The notes under the pieces: generated by a model
Told to the model about the DNA's origin: nothing
The model's input: the letters and a program-made list of their open reading frames with translations, nothing else
Database searches by the model: none
Shown here: piece by piece, positions 9,843 to 46,634 of the stretch
Layout: each line of letters opens with the position of its first letter
Position numbering within the stretch: the first letter of the stretch is position 1
Position numbers and translations under genes: made by a program
NCBI GenBank assembly: GCA_951406725.2
Contig: OX597815.1
Location: 96,534,001 to 96,598,000 of the forward strand
Direction: 5' to 3'
Source of the DNA: Octopus vulgaris
Lineage: Eukaryota
Length of the DNA stretch: 64,000 nt

Positions 9843-10098
9843 ATAACGTGAAGTATATTTGCCACCTATATGTGGTTAACACTTAAGGGTTGATGCTACT
9901 GTAGCCTGTAGCCCAGGAAGACATCTCCTCCAGCTGGCTATTGACACACTTTCTGTGCCCTATCAATATTTGCAAACGGAAGTCATCCTTCCCATCACCA
10001 GTCTTACGTGATACACACGGACCCGAGTTTCTGGGTAATGACTTGTCATGACCGTGTGACAACCACTAGCTGGCGATGTGAAGTGGTTCCGAAGGCCA
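9843..10098 (-). other. Unclassified structured element between TA-rich repeats (homologue of 31389-31550)
   Basis: Multiple hairpins, collinear with 31389-31550. Confidence 0.55.
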
Positions 10099-10289
10099 AT
10101 ATATACATACTTTTTCTAATGTTTTACTAAAACATTAATTGGTAAACTAAATCTATTTCCTCTATAGTCATGTAGCATTACTTGTATGCAAGCTGCAGTA
10201 GATTTGTGATCTCTGATATTTAATTCAAGATCTTTTTTTATAAAATGATCATACCCATGTCCGCCGCGACCGCACACACACACACACAC

Positions 10290-11253: not shown

Positions 11254-12853
11254 CAGTTGCGGCTAAAATGTTCAGAACGGCATTGTTTTCGTCAGAAAAG
11301 TAAGTATACGTTTTTATCATAGTATTTTTGTATTCTATAATTTTCACAGACAATAAATACCATATTAGTTGTTATTGTCTGAGATTCTGGTGTAATTTGA
11401 GAGGATAATACAAAAGTTATGGATGATTTAGTGATTTACTGCAAAACCCATGGCGGCCAAAATGATAAGAACGGTTGAAAAATTAACAAAATATTCAAAA
11501 ATGACAGAGAATACTGGAATTATTTAATATTTAGTGTGAAACCCTTTAGCTTCAATCACACTCTGACATCTTCGACTGCATGAGGAAATTAAATTTTCAA
11601 TTTCTTGCTGGGTGATCTTATTCCATTTTTCCTGAAGGGCATTCCATAATTGCTCAGTTGTTTAGGATTTCTGGCTTTCGAACGCTCTCCTAGAATATTC
11701 CATACATTTTCAATAGGATTGAGATCTGGGCTTTGAGCAGGCCAATCCATAACAATAACCTTTTCAGCCTTGAGGAAGTTCATAACCACCTTAGCCTTGT
11801 GACATGGGGCATTGTCCTGCATGAATATGGGTGTTCGGTTAGTTGAATTTCTCAGCACAGGCAAGACATGATCTTTTACAAGTTGTTTATAAACTCCTGC
11901 ATTTACCTTTCCATGTAATCGCACCAAAGGGCCCACACCATCTCCAGATATCATCTCCCAAACCATGACACTTCCTCCACCGAATTTAACACTAGTCTTA
12001 AGGCATTTCGGCGACAATTTTTCACCTACTTTTCTACGAACGTACCTTTACCCATCTGAGCCAAATAACATAAACGTTGATTCATCACTTAAATGCACCG
12101 TTTGCCATTTTTCTTGAGACCACAACACATGTTCGGTTGCAAAGGTAAGACGACACTTTTCTTCTTGGAGCTGATCAGTGGCTTCACTGCAGGTGCTCTT
12201 GCTTGTAGGTCATGTTCAACTAAACGACGAGACACAGTTTTTCGAGATAAAATTTTCTTCAATACAATGCTCATTTTCCGATAAACAGCAGCAGCAGTTT
12301 TAAATCTGTCCTTTTTAACCAACTTTACCATAGCACGATCTTCTCTCTTCGTCATTTTTCTTGGCCTACCTGTAAACTTTCTTGTTTCACACGAATCACA
12401 ATCATCGTAGACCTTAAGAATACCGTGTACAACACTTTTTGACTTGTTAACAATCTCTGCAATAGATCCAATACTTAAATTATCCTTCCTTCGAAGCTTA
12501 ATAATCTGCTGACGAATTGGTAACGGAGTAAGTGGCATTATATTAACAAAGTACACTGCAAACCGTCACGTAAACAAATTCAAAACATTAGAGTTCGCCG
12601 GTTAAATATACTAAAACACGGAGTAAAAGCAACCGTTCTGATTATTTTGGCCGCCATGGGTTTTGCAGTAAATCACTAAATCATCCATAACTTTTGTATT
12701 AACCTCTCAAATTACACCAAAATCTCAGGCAATGACAAATAATATCGTATTTATTGTATGTGAAAATTATAGAATATAAAACAACTTTGATAAAAAATTA
12801 TATTTACTTTTCTGACGAAAACAATGCCGTTCTGAACATTTTGGCCGCCACTG
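11254..12853 (-). mobile_element. Full-length Tc1-family transposon, 1600 bp, with 224 bp IR/DR-type TIRs and TA flanks
   Basis: TIRs at 11254-11477 and 12630-12853 start CAGT and carry an internal direct repeat ggcggccaaaat...agaacgg. TA on both sides. Confidence 0.95.
11524..12538 (-). pseudogene. Tc1 transposase (DD34E), frameshifted
   Basis: HTH region with a GRPRK linker, then SDES, QDNAPCH, WPAQSPDLNPIE (34 aa between D and E), ending GFHTKY*. Split over several frames. Confidence 0.92.
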
Positions 12854-27853: not shown

Positions 27854-27854
<1 letters not shown>

Positions 27855-28248
27855 TAGCAGTATCGCCCGGCGTTGCTTGGATTTGTAAGGGAAATAACTA
27901 TATAAGCATTTTTAGAGATGTAAAGTATAATAGCCATGTCAATATGGCTAACCACAAAAGGGGGGGGCGGTTACTGTAGCTTTTTACGTTCTGAGATTTA
28001 ATAATAAATTTTTAGAGAGTTACTTCCCTTATGCCAAAAATGCATTAAAAATCTGAAAAATTGATGGTAATTTCTTTTTTAAATCGTAGACTTATCGTAG
28101 ACGCGCGCTAATACCCAGAAGGGATCGATATGAATCACGACTATAAGATACCCGGTTTTGGTTAAACTGCACCGCAAAATGTGGGAGTATTTATGAATCT
28201 AAATCGTAGGAGACAGACAGCCCACAACGTCTCTTTTATATATAAAGA
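27854..28248 (-). mobile_element. Non-autonomous Helitron
   Basis: On the minus strand it starts TCTTTATATATAAAAG and ends with an imperfect GC hairpin (ccaagcaacgccggg) plus CTAG, inserted between A and T. Confidence 0.75.
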
Positions 28249-31388: not shown

Positions 31389-31550
31389 CAGGCCTAGCTG
31401 TTGGGGGTGTTTGTCTTCCCTTCGTAAATATATAAGGACACAGGAAATGTGTCAAGACCGACAGGAAGCGTCGATGCTTCCTAGGGCTAAAAAGCGGTGG
31501 TGTAATTCCCTTACAGGACTGTCACGTTAAGTTGACAGTATACAACTACT
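31389..31550 (+). other. Unclassified structured element in (TA)n (homologue of 9843-10098)
   Basis: Hairpins gacaca/tgtgtc, aggaagc/gcttcct and actgtca/tgacagt. Confidence 0.55.
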
Positions 31551-39606: not shown

Positions 39607-39713
39607 CAACGAAAAATTGTAAAAAGGCAGAATGCTAAATTGAAAGAAAATTTTTATGAAAATGTGTGTATGGAAAAAGTTTTTGAAAAATTGATAAAAT
39701 ATATATATATATT

Positions 39714-39755
39714 AATTCAAACCGGTTTTCGTCATAATGTGACTTTTCAAGAATT
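39714..39755 (-). ncRNA. Minimal type I hammerhead with the U3-A8 core variant
   Basis: Minus strand: aauuc UUGAAAA guca-cauua-ugac GAAA ACCGGU UU gaauu. Confidence 0.8.
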
Positions 39756-40419
39756 GTAAAGAAAAAAATTTGTTTAAATGTGAGGAGGGGGAAAAACGAA
39801 ATTTACATTCTTTTTTGCAAAAAAATAATAATAAATATATACAGAAATTTAAAAATAGGTACTCCGATACATTGTAAAATCTTTGTGTAACTTCAGTTTA
39901 ATGATTGTTCACGAAAAAATTATCTTGAAGTATTGAGATCCAATGGGATTAAATCCATGTGTTGTTTAATTTAATTTAGGGTGTCTCTTAAGTGGATGGC
40001 AAAACAGGAAGTAGTAGTAGTAGTCCAGTTCCTGTGTTGTGAATAAGGAGAGACAACTCTATGGGTTTTAAGCTCTTCAATTTGTGTTTATCAATTTTTT
40101 GTAATAAACCTTAAATTATAAAATTATCATTTTAGCTTCATTTGCATTATCTTTTTTATATAATTGTTTGCTAACTAACATTCAGATTTTAACACTTTAT
40201 TTATATTATTTTCTAATTATGTAAATTTGCATAAACCAATTTATAATTACATTTCAGATTGTTATGTCATATATAATAAAAATGATAGTAATAATAACAA
40301 CAATAATAATAATGATATTTAAAGAATATAAGTTTTAGCTTGAAGTGATGACTGCATGGTATCCTTATATATTTGTGTTAGTCCATCCATGAAGAATGAG
40401 GTAGAAAAAAGAAGTATGA

Positions 40420-42660
40420 TCAACGAGGAGTCTGCATATTAAGAAGCGTTTTGAATTTTTCAATAAAGAGATTCTCCTTGTTAATTCTCTCCTGTGTCGT
40501 GATCCCGTCTTTACATTGATAGAAGGGGAATATGTAGAATTTGGGATTTTTGTCCTTAGCGCATGAGTCTATGTGGTCACTCAGTGGGATTTGCCGGTAT
40601 TCCGGGAGATTTATTTGTTCTTTATGCACCGCTACTCGTTTACGTAATGGGAGGCTCGTTTGTCCAACATAATTATGTTGGCAACCAGCGCATGTGAGAA
40701 CGTAGATAAGGTTCTCGGAGGAACATGAGAAGTTAGTCTTGATTTTAAACTTCGTTCCTTGTTTGAAGATAAATTCAGAGCCTTCAAGTAGGAAGGGGCA
40801 AGTACCACAGTTTGGGCGTAAACATTTTTTAACTGCTGGGGGTGGATGTGGTGTGTGAAGTTTGGCATTTGTCAAGAGTTTTTTTAAAGATTTGTGTTGC
40901 CTTTTACATTTGAGGATTTTGTGTGTATTTATAATGTTTTTCATTTTTGGGTCTGTTGACAGTAAACTGAGGTTTTGTATGATTGTGGTGCATGCTTCGA
41001 TATTTTTGGGGTTGTAGGTGGAAATGTATGGAAGTATTTTGGGGTTGTGTGTGGTATTAGGTTGGGTGGTTTTAGTGTAATGTTGTCAAGTTCTTTGGCG
41101 CGTTTTATTCCATACTCTATAAGGGTGGAGGGATATTGGCCTTGTAATAGTGTTTTTTTAGGTCTTGAAGGCGTATTTCTCAAGTTTTTGGATCCGAGAC
41201 AATGGTGCATACACTTTTAGCTAAGTTGAAAGGGATATTTGTCTTGGTGTGTTTTGGGTGGCATGAACTAAAGAGGAAGTATTGTTGTGAGTCTGTAGGC
41301 TTTTGGTAGATGTCTGTTATGATTTGGTTCTTAGGTGTTTTTATAATTAGGAGATCAAGGAAAGGGAGATGATGTTTGCTTAATTCCGTAGTGAATTGGA
41401 TGTTGGGATGTATGTTTTGAATTCCAGTATGGTTTTGAATTCCAGAAGTTTTTCATAAGGTTCTTTCCATATGATGAAACAGTCATCCAAATACCTTTTC
41501 CAGTTTTCCATTAGGTAGGTGTGGAAAACATGTCCAAATTTCTGGCGTGATATCTCATAGAGTGATAGTTCGAAGAAACCCATTATGAGGTTCGCAAGGA
41601 CTGGTCCAGCCTTGGTACCCATCGCAATACCACATTTTTGACGGTAGTGTGTGTTGTCGAAGAGGAAATAATTGTTTGTCAGAATGAACTTGAGTGATTC
41701 CGTAATAAAGGTCTTGTGAATGCGGTCAGGGAATGTCTCTGGGTGTTTTTCTAGCCACAAATCAATTGCCTCAATACCATATTCATGTGGGATGTTGGTG
41801 TAGAGGTTGATGGCATCAAAGGATACCAGGAGCGCCTCCACGTTAACTGTTTTCGGGAGGTGTTTGAGCATGTCAAGATCATCCCTAACGAAATTTTGAT
41901 GTGGCTAAGGAAAGATTTCAAAAGGATGTCTAGGAAATTACTCAGGCGATGTGTTTCACAGGAGGTGCCAGACACGATGGGCCTTAAGTTTAGGTCCTGG
42001 ATGTCAGAGGAGAGTTTGCAGGCTTCGGTGATGTATTTGTTTTTATGGATTTTAGGAAGGCCATAAAAAGGCTGGGCTTGCATTTGAAAATGGTGATATA
42101 ATCCCTTTCTTTTCCTGTGAGTCCCTGACCGTGTTGGAGTATGAGTGTGGTGCGGTTTTTGATTGTTTTTTGTTGTTTATAGTTGTTAATAACCTCATAG
42201 AAAGTGCTCTTGTTTAGCATGGAAAGCACTAGGTGTTTATAAAACTCCGTGTCCATAAGGACCACAGCACTCCCTTTATCGGCTTCTTTGATGGTAAGGT
42301 TTTTGTCCAGTTGTAGTACACGTAGGTTTTTCCATTCTTCCCTACTGAAATTAGATTTTACCTTGGTTTTGCCTGGGGTAAAGGGGAGAATCTGGATGTG
42401 TTTGCAAAAATCGTCCAGTGCTTTATTTCTTCCTTTTGATGGTAGGAAGTTGCTTTTATTTCTTATCAATGAATCGTCCCCATTGTTGAGATCTGTCAGA
42501 GCTTCTGTTAAACGAAGTTTTCTGCAGAATTCAGAAACGTCATCCTTGACCTCCGGGGGGTTGGGTGTTCTTGGGGTGGGTGTGAATTTCAAACCTCTTG
42601 CTAGGATGTTGATTTGGGTTGGTGTCAGTGTTTTGCTGGAGAGGTTTATAATTTTCGTTT
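40420..42660 (-). pseudogene. PLE reverse transcriptase and GIY-YIG endonuclease
   Basis: IKEADKGSAVV, FYGLPKIHK, LRPIVS, SFDAINLYTNIP, GIAMGT, RYLDD, PFLDL, a Cys-rich linker CLRPNCGTC, and NLIYVLTC..C...YVGQT...RVAVH. Confidence 0.93.
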
Positions 42661-42726
42661 TCTTATTTTGGGACTGTGTTAGCGGTGGTGTTTGTATTTT
42701 TCTCCTCTGTCTCTCTCTATATATAT

Positions 42727-42728
<2 letters not shown>

Positions 42729-42760
<32 letters not shown>

Positions 42761-45700
42761 CTATTTTCAGCTCATGAGCTGTGGCCATGCTGGGGCACCG
42801 CCATTTGGTGTTGCTACTTGGTTTTACTTCACGAAAGCTTTTTAGCAACTGCCATTTGGTGCATGAGAGAGTTCGATGCAGCTGCCCTCATCTGCACTTC
42901 CTGCCGTGAAGTTGGTTCATCTGGCACACCTGACAGGAAGAGATCCAGTTTCATTTTAAAGACATCTGCATCCACCCCATGCAGGTCTCTCAGGTTCTTC
43001 GGGAGGATATTGAAGAGCTGTGGGCCTCGGAAGCCCAGGCTTTCACAGTATCTTGTCCTACATCTTGATGGCAAATTTGGAGTCCTAGGCACCACGCAGT
43101 GGCGCCCAGTTCTGGCATTTGTGTAACTCTCGATGCCAAAGTTTGGGACACGTCCCTCCAGGATCTTCCAGATGTATATTATGGCATTTCTTTCCCGCCT
43201 ACGCTCCAAGGAATATAGGTTTAATCTCTTGAGTCTTTCCCAGTAGCTTACATTCTGCATAGAGGCTATCTTCTTCGTGTAGCTACGCTGGATCGCCTCG
43301 AGCTCTGTGATCAACTTGACACTGGATGGTGACCATAACTGAGAGCAATAGTCAAAGTGACTTAGGACAAGTGTCCTCCAGAGGACCATCATGGTTTCTT
43401 GTTCTCTTGTTCTAAAGGTTCTGAGAATCCATCCGGCCAGTCGTCTACATTTCATTGCCAATTTAGCAACATGTACAAGAAAGGTCGCGTCCTCACTCAT
43501 GTAAATACCCAGGTCACGCACTGATTGTGCCTCTGGGATTGCTATTCCTCCGGGTCCAGTGTATTCATTGGGTATTGCATTTAGTTTTGCATGCTGATAG
43601 TATAAAGCTTAAAACTTTTCAGCATTGAACTGCATGCTATTCTTTTCAGCCCACTTGTATATTTTGTCCAGCTCACATTGCAGGCGTTTAGTGTCCTCAG
43701 GGTTCTGTATTGCCTGTGAAACTTTTTTATCATCTGCATAACTTGTGATCGTGGCTCTCTGCGTGGCTGAGGGCATGTCTGAGAGGGCCATTATGAACAG
43801 TAGTGGTCCCAGAACAGTGCACTGCGGAACACCGCTCACTATTTGTGTGTTAATGGAAGTGGCCCCATTGGCTACTACCACCTGGCTTCTATCTTTCAGA
43901 AAGTCATGAAGCCATTCTCCCAGTTTTCCAACTATGTTGAGATCACGCAGTTTGTGACATATCACTCCATGATCGACTTTATCAAAGGCCTTTGCAAAGT
44001 CGAGATATATCACTTCCACATTTGAGTGGTTGAGCAGCCGTTTAAGCACCCAGTCATAGTGCTGCAGGAGCTGAGTTAAACAGCTTCTCCCTGGTCGGAA
44101 ACCATGTTGGATGTCGGGCAACAAGTCATTTTCTTCAAGGAAGGTGATCAGTTTCCTTCTGACTATTCGTTCCATGACCTCCTTTATGAATGGGGCATAT
44201 TTTACCTTCCTTCAGTTTTCTTGGAAGTTTGCCAGCTGCAAGGAAGCTCTGAAAGAGGAACTGCAGTGGTCTTGCTAGGACTCTCTTACATGCTTTTAGA
44301 AGGATTGCCGGGAATCCATCGGGGCCAGTAGCTGAGTCTGTTTTCATTTCATCTATAGCCTTTATTACATCGTCTTCCTTTATATCGATGTAATCTATCG
44401 TCGCCGCCTCTGATTTTATATCTGCAGTGGTAAAGAATTCAGTTGGATTGGTGATTTGGAGATGCCCAAGGGGTGGAGTGAAAACACTCTTGAATTGCTC
44501 ATTCAGTATTTCACTTACCCTCATTGGTTTTCCTGTAAGTGTGCCATCCTTTTCAAGGAGTGGCCTTATTCTACAGTGCACCGTAGCTGTTTCTTTGGCA
44601 TACCTGTAGAAAGCTCTGGGGTTAGATTTTATGTTGTCTATAGCCCAGGCTTCTTTGTCTGCTCTTTCCTTTTCATGGGAGAGTTGCAGACATTTTTCAA
44701 TTTCCAACAGTTTTATTTTTAGGCGGGACTTTTCACTGCTTTCAATCTGTTTGTTTAGGCGATTTGAAATTTTTGCACGCCGTCTCATTAAAATTTTCCT
44801 CTCTCTGGGGATTTTGGTCTTGTGTACAGTGGCCTTTCTCTCTGGGACACATTTGTAGCATATGGCTTGCATTACAGACATGAATTGTTGAAGTTTCACG
44901 TCGATGTCTGGCGAGGAGAGACATTTAGGCCAGTTTTGTTTGAGGATCTCTTTCTCAATTTGTTTCCAGTTTGCCTTATGGTAGTTCAAGCTGGAAAGAT
45001 TCTGAGGGTTTCTTGTAGGCTGCATGTCCGTGCTCTCTTTTGGCCCGTACATGGTCAGCTCTACCATGTTGTGATCCGAGAGTAGTGTTGGTGTCACTTT
45101 CACATTATGGATGAGATCCATGTCATTTGTGAAGCAGAGATCCAGTGTGTTACCTGCCCTGGTTGGTTGGAGTATTACTTGCTCCATGTACAGGGTGTTG
45201 ATGAGGTTCAGGAGGGACCTCGCCTGTCCTCGTTCACATCTTGTCATTCCTGGAAGTGAAAGGCCCTCAGGCCATCTGACATTGGGTAGATTGAAGTCTC
45301 CCATGAGAAGTACACTTATGTGTTGTTCTAATGTGATTAGAAATTCTTCTATTTTTATAAGGCAGTCTTCAAACTTGCCTACATGGCTTGGGGCATCTGG
45401 AGGGCGATATGTAGCACACACAGCTACATCGAGGTGCCTTATGTGTACAATTAGTGTGTCACACACCGAGTTTGAGTATGACAAAAGGACCTGGGGTGTG
45501 AGGTCCTCACGGATGTACATAGCAACTCCTCCATGGCTCCTTTCTTTTCTGTCGGTCCGTAGTACAACATACTGTGGTATGTGTAATTCCGCATCTGCTA
45601 TGTCCGGTTTCAGGTGCGTTTCCGTAAGTGCTATGCATAAGGTTTGATTGCATGCGACAAAGTCTCTCAGGATCGGGGATTTTTGTCCTGTTACTGAGTG

Positions 45701-46634
45701 TTTGCAGTCCTCTGATGTTCAGTAGGAGCATCGAGGTGAGGTGTATGTTGTTGCCGGCGGTGTCCATCTTGGGTCTGTTTGCTGTGGTGGTCTTGTATAT
45801 TGTGGGTAGTCCCACCTGTGAGCTTGGGTTTGATGAAGCCAGGACAGCTGCTGTACAATCTTTTGTGACATGCACAAATAAGATTCTTGCTCAGCAGCTG
45901 CCCTTTCAACAACGTCATGTTGGCGGTTTGTGGCACGCACCACATCTGCGTACCTCCGTTTTGGGGCAGGTGGTGCGTGGTCCATCCCTTTTCCTTGTGT
46001 TGATGGTTTGTTTATCTGTTTTCGTTTCGTGTCTCTGTGGCAGGTCCCCGATGTGCAAAGCGGCAGCCTGCACCTTCCTCTCCATGCCAGCAGGTACCTC
46101 TCAGGTAGAACCTACACACCCGTGTGCGCTGTTTGTTTCCATCCCTTGCGGTTCCACTTCTATTCCTGGCTGTTTCACCCTTTAGTCCTGCTTGAGCTTT
46201 TCCTTTAGCTCTTTCAGTCCTTCTTTTAGTTCTTCTTCCCTCTACTTCTTCCCTGGGTTCTCCATCTCCATGGCCCTTGCTGCTGGTAGGAGCATTTGTA
46301 CCTGGGTTCACTTCCCGGGCAGGTTTCTCACTCAAAAGCCCTTCCCGGGTGTCCACCAGGTGGGGGTGACTTCTTTCATCGTCTCCATCCTTGCCATCTT
46401 TGCCCTGCTCGTTCTAAAAAATGGCATCAAGTGTGCCAATGTGCGACCGTACAAGCGCATAGGAGCGTTTGAATTCCTGTTTCTTTCGCTCTATCTGAGC
46501 TACCGTCCTTTTGTAGTTGCCGCTCTTCAGCGCAGCCATAATCACATTGTTTGGGTTTTCTCCGTCGGCGCATTTCCAGACTCGTACGAACAACGCCAGT
46601 TCGTCAGGTCTCCAGGCTCTGGACATGTTGGATA
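42729..46634 (-). mobile_element. Near full-length CR1/L2-group LINE with an (AATC)n tail
   Basis: ORF1 with a CCCH finger (CRFYLRGTCWHGEEGAGCRFAH), ORF2 APE plus RT, and a (GATT)n tail on the plus strand. Confidence 0.9.
42829..45770 (-). pseudogene. LINE ORF2 (APE endonuclease and reverse transcriptase), frameshifted
   Basis: LLNIRGL, ETHL, GDFN, LDL, SDH, then QHGFRPGRSCLTQL, YLDFAKAFDKV, SGVPQ, YADD and LYSLERRR. Confidence 0.92.

Follow-up and report, generated by a model that had tools for sequence, protein, structure and literature searches.

What are the two hairpin-rich stretches that resemble each other in a 64,000-nt window of the Octopus vulgaris genome (the window being the whole stretch of DNA analysed)? 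A sequence-only reading had taken them for diverged copies of one unclassified element, a candidate novel structured RNA or retroelement terminus. We consider it highly probable that they are dead copies of ORF-less, hammerhead-bearing non-LTR retrozymes of two families, A and B, likely mobilised by the RT-endonuclease of a Penelope-like element (PLE), probably of Neptune type. The class is already known; A and B, with two relatives C and D, are new families of it. The stretch first noticed is the structured 3′ part of a retroelement RNA, with helices that covary between families. It loses its status as an unclassified novel RNA because a canonical minimal type I hammerhead is present in the full unit, which has Penelope-like termini and falls within the non-LTR retrozymes already described.

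Window copies and their families

Homology between the two stretches is confirmed by nhmmer (E=1.8e-5 in the window) and by a local alignment score of 127 vs 64.0 ± 6.0 (maximum 88) in 1000 base shuffles, in agreement with the collinearity earlier seen by eye. They are members of two high-copy families rather than copies of one element: A has at least 47 matches from 40 scored of 2848 candidates (92–100% identity among full-length matches), and B at least 48 from 40 scored of 3427 (85–89%). Their profiles match each other across the whole unit, from the 5′ arm to the 3′ end. Homologous families C (1363 candidates, first seen in locus L011) and D (2735 candidates, first seen in L109) turned up by chance in flanking DNA, and the four families are collinear when aligned. 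Pieces of more diverged 3′ domains in L038 (oriented ~1270–1500), L132:3081-3131 and L019:2717-2790 belong to further sub-families, so that there are more than four families.

The A copy in the window is the last 162 nt of a unit, up to a 3′ end that we term E1, and both window copies are decayed genomic fragments (Table 1). Taken alone they fold slightly better than shuffles (z −1.59 for A and −1.97 for B), and an Rfam scan, which the sequence-only reading had proposed as a check, returned no match at gathering score in the window. Full-length relatives revise several of its details. Its first hairpin (ggggg/cttcc) results from truncation: in full-length copies the same nucleotides pair with the upstream arm, which the truncated A copy no longer has. 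The shared 'GGCCT' start is a coincidence, falling in the 3′ rod arm at the truncation point in A and at the mutated start of the 5′ arm in B. The hammerhead-like 'CUGKUG..GYAAA' stretch belongs to the 3′ arm of the rod and is not a ribozyme; the real hammerhead sits ~50 nt upstream in A, missing from the window copy, and in B at the site listed in Table 1, where the mutated core box is one that most B relatives keep intact.

Table 1. Positions of retrozyme copies, their parts and neighbouring repeats in the window
Feature	Position	Strand	Remarks
Family A retrozyme copy	31389..31550	+	5′-truncated, lacking hammerhead and 5′ arm; ends at E1, in TA repeat
3′ arm of ~140-nt rod	31389..31431	+	5′ arm partner and apical hammerhead missing in this copy
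Hairpin H2, 6 bp	31437..31453	+	Sequence-conserved; changes across families mostly one-sided
Two-part stem H3	31456..31488	+	Compensatory changes across families
Helix P (long-range), 5′ strand	31494..31501	+	Partner lies in the E1–E2 tail, which this copy lacks
Hairpin H4	31519..31538	+	Immediately upstream of E1
Family B retrozyme copy	9847..10103	-	5′ arm to E1; older, more decayed, 85–89% to best relatives
Type I hammerhead of B copy	10014..10058	-	Stems I–III recognisable; catalytic core box mutated
3′ domain of B copy	9861..9959	-	H2 9959-9943, H3 9940-9909, P strand 9902-9895, H4 9875-9861
B-like 3′ domain piece, ~70 nt	27918..27990	-	P strand and H4; within Helitron-like repeat
Repeat taken to be Helitron-like, ~400 nt	~27854-28248	-	Non-autonomous
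Neptune/Nematis-type PLE	~39690-42760	-	5′-truncated, frameshifted; RVT_1, CxxxxCxxC linker, GIY-YIG
LINE	42829-45718	-	Endonuclease and RT frames; directly at the 5′ break of the PLE copy
Tc1/mariner-like transposase fragments	11589-12565	-	DDE_3, E=1.2e-13

Copy number was gauged from 312 kb fetched for other reasons, which hold two insertions and a piece inside a Helitron-like copy; two insertions per 312 kb would, as a rough inference, mean some 10^4 copies overall in this microsatellite-rich genome of 2.8 Gb. Family A contigs also occur in a sequencing run of a second organism (X16). Words of family A are found in 14 runs guessed to be RNA, all as contigs that show neither strand, ends nor circles, and none of the records carrying family A sequence is on record as RNA.

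The B-like piece of Table 1 lies in the middle of a repeat that we take, by its termini (a TC start preceded by A; a hairpin and CTAG end followed by T), to be Helitron-like, an apparent capture of one element by another. All 40 scored matches of that repeat, out of 3291 candidates, are 94–100% identical.

Unit and hammerhead

In most A copies the sequence extends beyond the 5′ end of the window copy by 50–110 nt, and this extra part holds a minimal type I hammerhead. The full unit is 353–365 nt, within the 170–400 nt used to define non-coding retrozymes, and closes on itself head-to-tail, with repeat distances of 359–365 (A), 353–356 (B), 353 (C) and 362 and 362 nt (D). As the sequence-only reading had it, there is no ORF, the longest ATG frame in A and D units being 17–30 aa. 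The parts follow in this order: a rod with an apical hammerhead, H2, H3, the 5′ strand of helix P, H4, E1, a tail, a second end E2 and a spacer. The rod measures 137–143 nt and has the hammerhead at its tip in all four families; the tail spans 45–60 nt and the spacer ~55–65 nt, running back into the 5′ arm.

Hammerheads were called by a core-box pattern with checks on the three stems. Among copies covering the core, 23/30 (A), 27/34 (B), 15/25 (C) and 25/27 (D) retain it intact, counts in which two pairs of overlapping loci are entered twice. Stem III is self-complementary and of a different sequence in each family, a property linked to dimeric hammerhead cleavage (PMC4209133; this and the other papers below are cited from the parts of their text available). 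Family D has a U3-A8 core variant, also described for PLE hammerheads (PMC4209133). A–D share core boxes and a three-stem junction with the Rfam hammerhead families; these are read by pattern. The Rfam models matched neither in the window at gathering score nor in four loci at E≤1, where only sub-threshold miRNA-type matches on microsatellites and inverted junctions appeared. Other short hammerhead-like repeats ending in TA runs (L020:2215-2340, L055:2926-3070, L054:980-1050) are unrelated to A–D.

Tandem copies are mostly partial, and most loci hold less than two intact units. One locus, L130, is a trimer of D units in phase with intact hammerheads, the only such locus seen. Two C units share L150, both with changed cores; in family A, two same-strand hammerheads stand 337 nt apart with a TA tract between them (L007/L027). 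No perfect intact dimer was seen among 30 loci each of A and B.

Does the hammerhead act in the cycle? The core and stem III are kept in four diverged families, which points to selection on the ribozyme, and the 353–365-nt period is common to them all, as is a rod running unbroken through the cleavage site. Both observations tell against the copying of linear tandem transcripts with neither a circle nor ribozyme cleavage, the hammerhead being an inherited passenger or acting at a later stage. That account, which departs from our preferred one only in the cleavage and circularisation steps, is a possibility that we rank clearly lower yet take seriously: partial tandems can arise from either a circle or a tandem transcript, and hammerhead mutants did not affect PLE insertion in vitro (PMC11167929). 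Published activities also count against a ribozyme cycle: in vitro cleavage was seen for only one of the nine Xenopus retrozyme dimers examined (bioRxiv 10.64898/2026.07.22.740005), and cleavage by minimal PLE hammerheads is weak (PMC4209133).

Insertion ends and 3′ fold

The 5′ ends of copies are scattered, and the 3′ ends are fixed at two points, E1 and E2, mostly at TA repeats. The 178 aligned segments comprise 70 with their end at E1, 57 at E2 and 4 elsewhere, besides 47 that continue past the tail into the spacer, in the direction of the next unit. A TA run adjoins 77 of the 127 ends at E1 or E2 (vs 7.6% of random 30-mers). Where two arms stand back to back (n=34), 30 loci pair E1 with E2, none E1 with E1, none E2 with E2, and four (all C) are unclassified; without overlapping or duplicated loci some 28–29 are independent, L007/L027 and L147/L150 being the same insertions and L132/L136 appearing duplicated. 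Our queries bias which end the main arm has, not the partner arm. Fixed 3′ ends, an optional tail at one end, 5′ truncation, an inverted arm and a microsatellite target together make up a PLE-type insertion signature. The E1+E2 pattern corresponds to the one-sided tail drawn for PLEs (PMC8557442), explained in PMC11167929 by two internal starts: in vitro, a PLE cuts AT-rich DNA, extends both strands and starts at two internal sites bounding the tail.

The RNA fold upstream of these ends is shared. Four full-length copies each of A and B gave fold z scores of −5.0 to −8.0 and −1.7 to −3.1, respectively (40 shuffles each), and the sense strand folded better than the antisense in 7/8. RNAalifold on 28 sequences (seven per family) returned H2, H3 and H4, which take up the helices GACACA/TGTGTC (H2), AGCC/GGCT-enclosed GGAAG/CTTCC (H3) and the terminal hairpin (H4) of the sequence-only reading; its first hairpin is absent from the cross-family consensus. 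Over these 20 pairs, 95.0% of cells pair, vs 88.5% when shuffled and 28–52% when slid; two-sided changes occur in 6 of the 20, not above shuffles (258/500). Once the tail is added, 24 sequences and 31 pairs give 91.3% pairing and two-sided changes in 12 pairs, with 163/500 shuffles as high.

The tail contributes helix P, a long-range helix that covaries across the four families and spans E1. Two-sided changes affect 5/8 of its pairs at 90% pairing in the 24 tail-included sequences, a count made on the same sequences in which the helix was first spotted by eye. The tail hairpin H5 is weak (76% paired). The covariation expected of a structured RNA is found for H3 and P, and two of five whole-structure measures are no better than shuffles. 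These counts rest on four lineages and are inflated by relatedness, so that the 3′ fold is well supported for H3 and P, not proven. For the 5′ rod, RNAalifold kept 13 pairs, 12 with two-sided changes; the MAFFT alignment is too shifted for a full consensus, and the rod rests mainly on per-family folds.

Multi-hairpin, AT-targeted repeats, one piece of which sits inside a Helitron-like repeat, might also suggest that the hairpins serve as a signal at the DNA level, for a rolling-circle or MITE-like transposon, or form a structured RNA with a host function. The hammerhead, the G-U-tolerant helices and the strand preference of the fold speak against both, as do ragged 5′ with fixed 3′ ends, the lack of terminal inverted repeats (TIRs) and Helitron termini, and the decay of the window copies. 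The hammerhead and the 5′ truncation pattern largely refute this explanation, which we hold to be scarcely credible. A tRNA-derived SINE, a MITE and a Helitron were each considered and rejected: the ends, read directly, have neither TIRs nor TC...CTRR, and no Rfam tRNA match occurs in the window, as the sequence-only reading had judged for TIRs and a tRNA head.

Penelope-like elements and a candidate cycle

Known animal retrozymes are the closest comparison. Metazoan non-LTR retrozymes (PMC7229834; bioRxiv 10.64898/2026.07.22.740005) likewise have an ORF-less ~350-nt unit, a type I hammerhead, head-to-tail repeats, a highly self-paired monomer, co-occurrence with PLEs and many solo copies; Cervera and de la Pena (2020; PMC7229834) describe their size, tandem form and circles, the mussel unit being 350–390 bp. 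A–D differ from them in occurring mostly as dispersed partial tandems and as inverted insertions with two arms and two fixed 3′ ends, and in having one covarying 3′ domain common to the four families. Li, Clavereau and Pollet (2026; bioRxiv 10.64898/2026.07.22.740005) matched 24 of 57 Xenopus families to known transposable elements (21 of the 22 being PLEs), whereas A–D have no pseudo-LTR (pLTR) homology among the loci searched; the word 'tail' does not occur in the available text of that preprint. An octopus repeat annotation (PMC13282606) lists Penelope, SINE and unknown families and, in its available text, mentions no ribozymes. A match to the end of an already described transposon, which the sequence-only reading had named as a refutation, exists at the level of the class; these particular families were not found in the papers searched. 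No description of A–D was found in literature on octopus retrozymes, hammerhead ribozymes or cephalopod Penelope elements, and subscription papers, supplements, Repbase or Dfam may hold one.

The other comparison is with the pLTR and tail of endonuclease-bearing PLEs (Neptune/Nematis type; Poseidon PAc, PMC11167929; PMC8557442). There too are a hammerhead with a palindromic helix III, a one-sided tail, an inverted 5′-truncated arm, partial tandems and microsatellite or AT-rich targets. A–D differ in having no RT-endonuclease ORF and a tail of 45–60 rather than 30–40 nt. Between hammerhead and E1 they carry a GC-richer structure of ~170 nt, where the autonomous families read in this genome have ~50–140 AT-rich nucleotides.

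In the family of the window's PLE fragment, many copies keep a 753-aa frame open, and the AT-rich 3′ region, ~770 nt long, contains a hammerhead-like motif of non-canonical type. A 781-aa Neptune-type family shares its U3-A8 core variant and stem III with family D. Four inverted insertions of autonomous Neptune-type elements were read by eye: three have the same one-sided ~45-nt tail, and in the fourth (L164) both arms have the same end. Several autonomous Neptune-type families (L097, L102, L106, L112, L111, L094, L118, L161–L167) have divergent hammerhead-like cores near the 3′ end (U3-A8, GCAA for GAAA and others), followed by tail, short spacer and ATG. A match of 16 nt that blast gave between A and 40374-40359, within the 3′ UTR of the window PLE, was unsupported by profiles and set aside; a faint resemblance, seen by eye, of retrozyme tail motifs to those of autonomous elements is likewise given no weight.

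The search for a partner applied profiles and covariance models to 60 loci, of which 30 belong to the Neptune-type family seen in the window and 30 are Pfam GIY-YIG loci, and to 12 longer regions, together a small sample of the PLE families of a genome with thousands of PLE candidates. Neither an autonomous element with the retrozyme 3′ domain nor pLTR homology to a partner PLE turned up in these 60 GIY-YIG loci and 12 longer regions, where the only matches were inserted retrozyme copies (L109, L167). Longer copies joined to an RT frame, a prospect raised by the sequence-only reading, were likewise absent: across 100 retrozyme loci no ORF with RT and GIY-YIG stands between pLTRs and no PLE protein match is joined to a unit, the two PLE fragments seen being flanking ones.

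Could A–D nonetheless be solo pLTRs, 5′-truncated stubs of an autonomous PLE whose ORF-bearing copies fell outside the sample? The hammerhead, the tail, the inversions and the TA targets each occur in pLTRs too (PMC8557442, PMC4209133), and few of the genome's thousands of PLE candidates were examined here. The unit boundaries make this improbable, however. Upstream of the hammerhead, copies enter the tail and spacer of their own unit, not a GIY-YIG ORF; downstream of the tail comes the next 5′ arm, not an ATG-led ORF, whereas autonomous families run tail, spacer, ATG.

For the retrozyme reading, unit, ribozyme motif, fold, ends and TA targets are read from the DNA, and from there we infer cleavage, a circle and a partner enzyme. 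A tandem transcript would be cut to unit length by hammerheads acting as dimers, and the monomer ligated to a circle. A borrowed Penelope-like RT-endonuclease would recognise the H2-H3-P-H4-tail fold, nick both strands of a TA tract and start internally, with one DNA end used at E1 and the other at E2. Copying would stop at random points, after 162 nt in the stub here and after more than a full unit elsewhere, and the resulting pair of cDNAs would be joined back to back; the stretch first noticed would be the part copied first.

The addition to the class is a 3′ fold common to, and covarying across, four families, with one helix spanning the first start site. Tentatively, this fold could be a dedicated and portable docking and start signal for Penelope-type RTs. 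With helix P enclosing the first start site and the tail hairpin lying just before the second, one folded circle might conceivably set both starts of a dimeric enzyme, a proposal we would not put more strongly. Since the fold was not found in the autonomous elements examined, these retrozymes may perhaps be an old lineage of circular RNA parasites with an enzyme-recruiting structure of their own, not fresh pLTR deletions; this, too, we offer with reserve. The return of animal retrozymes to DNA by PLE enzymes has been proposed, not shown, and little is known of the RNA features that these enzymes recognise. With four natural families that share a covarying 3′ fold and have both start sites mapped, substrates and compensatory mutants are at hand; the intact Neptune-type ORFs of this genome are candidate enzymes.
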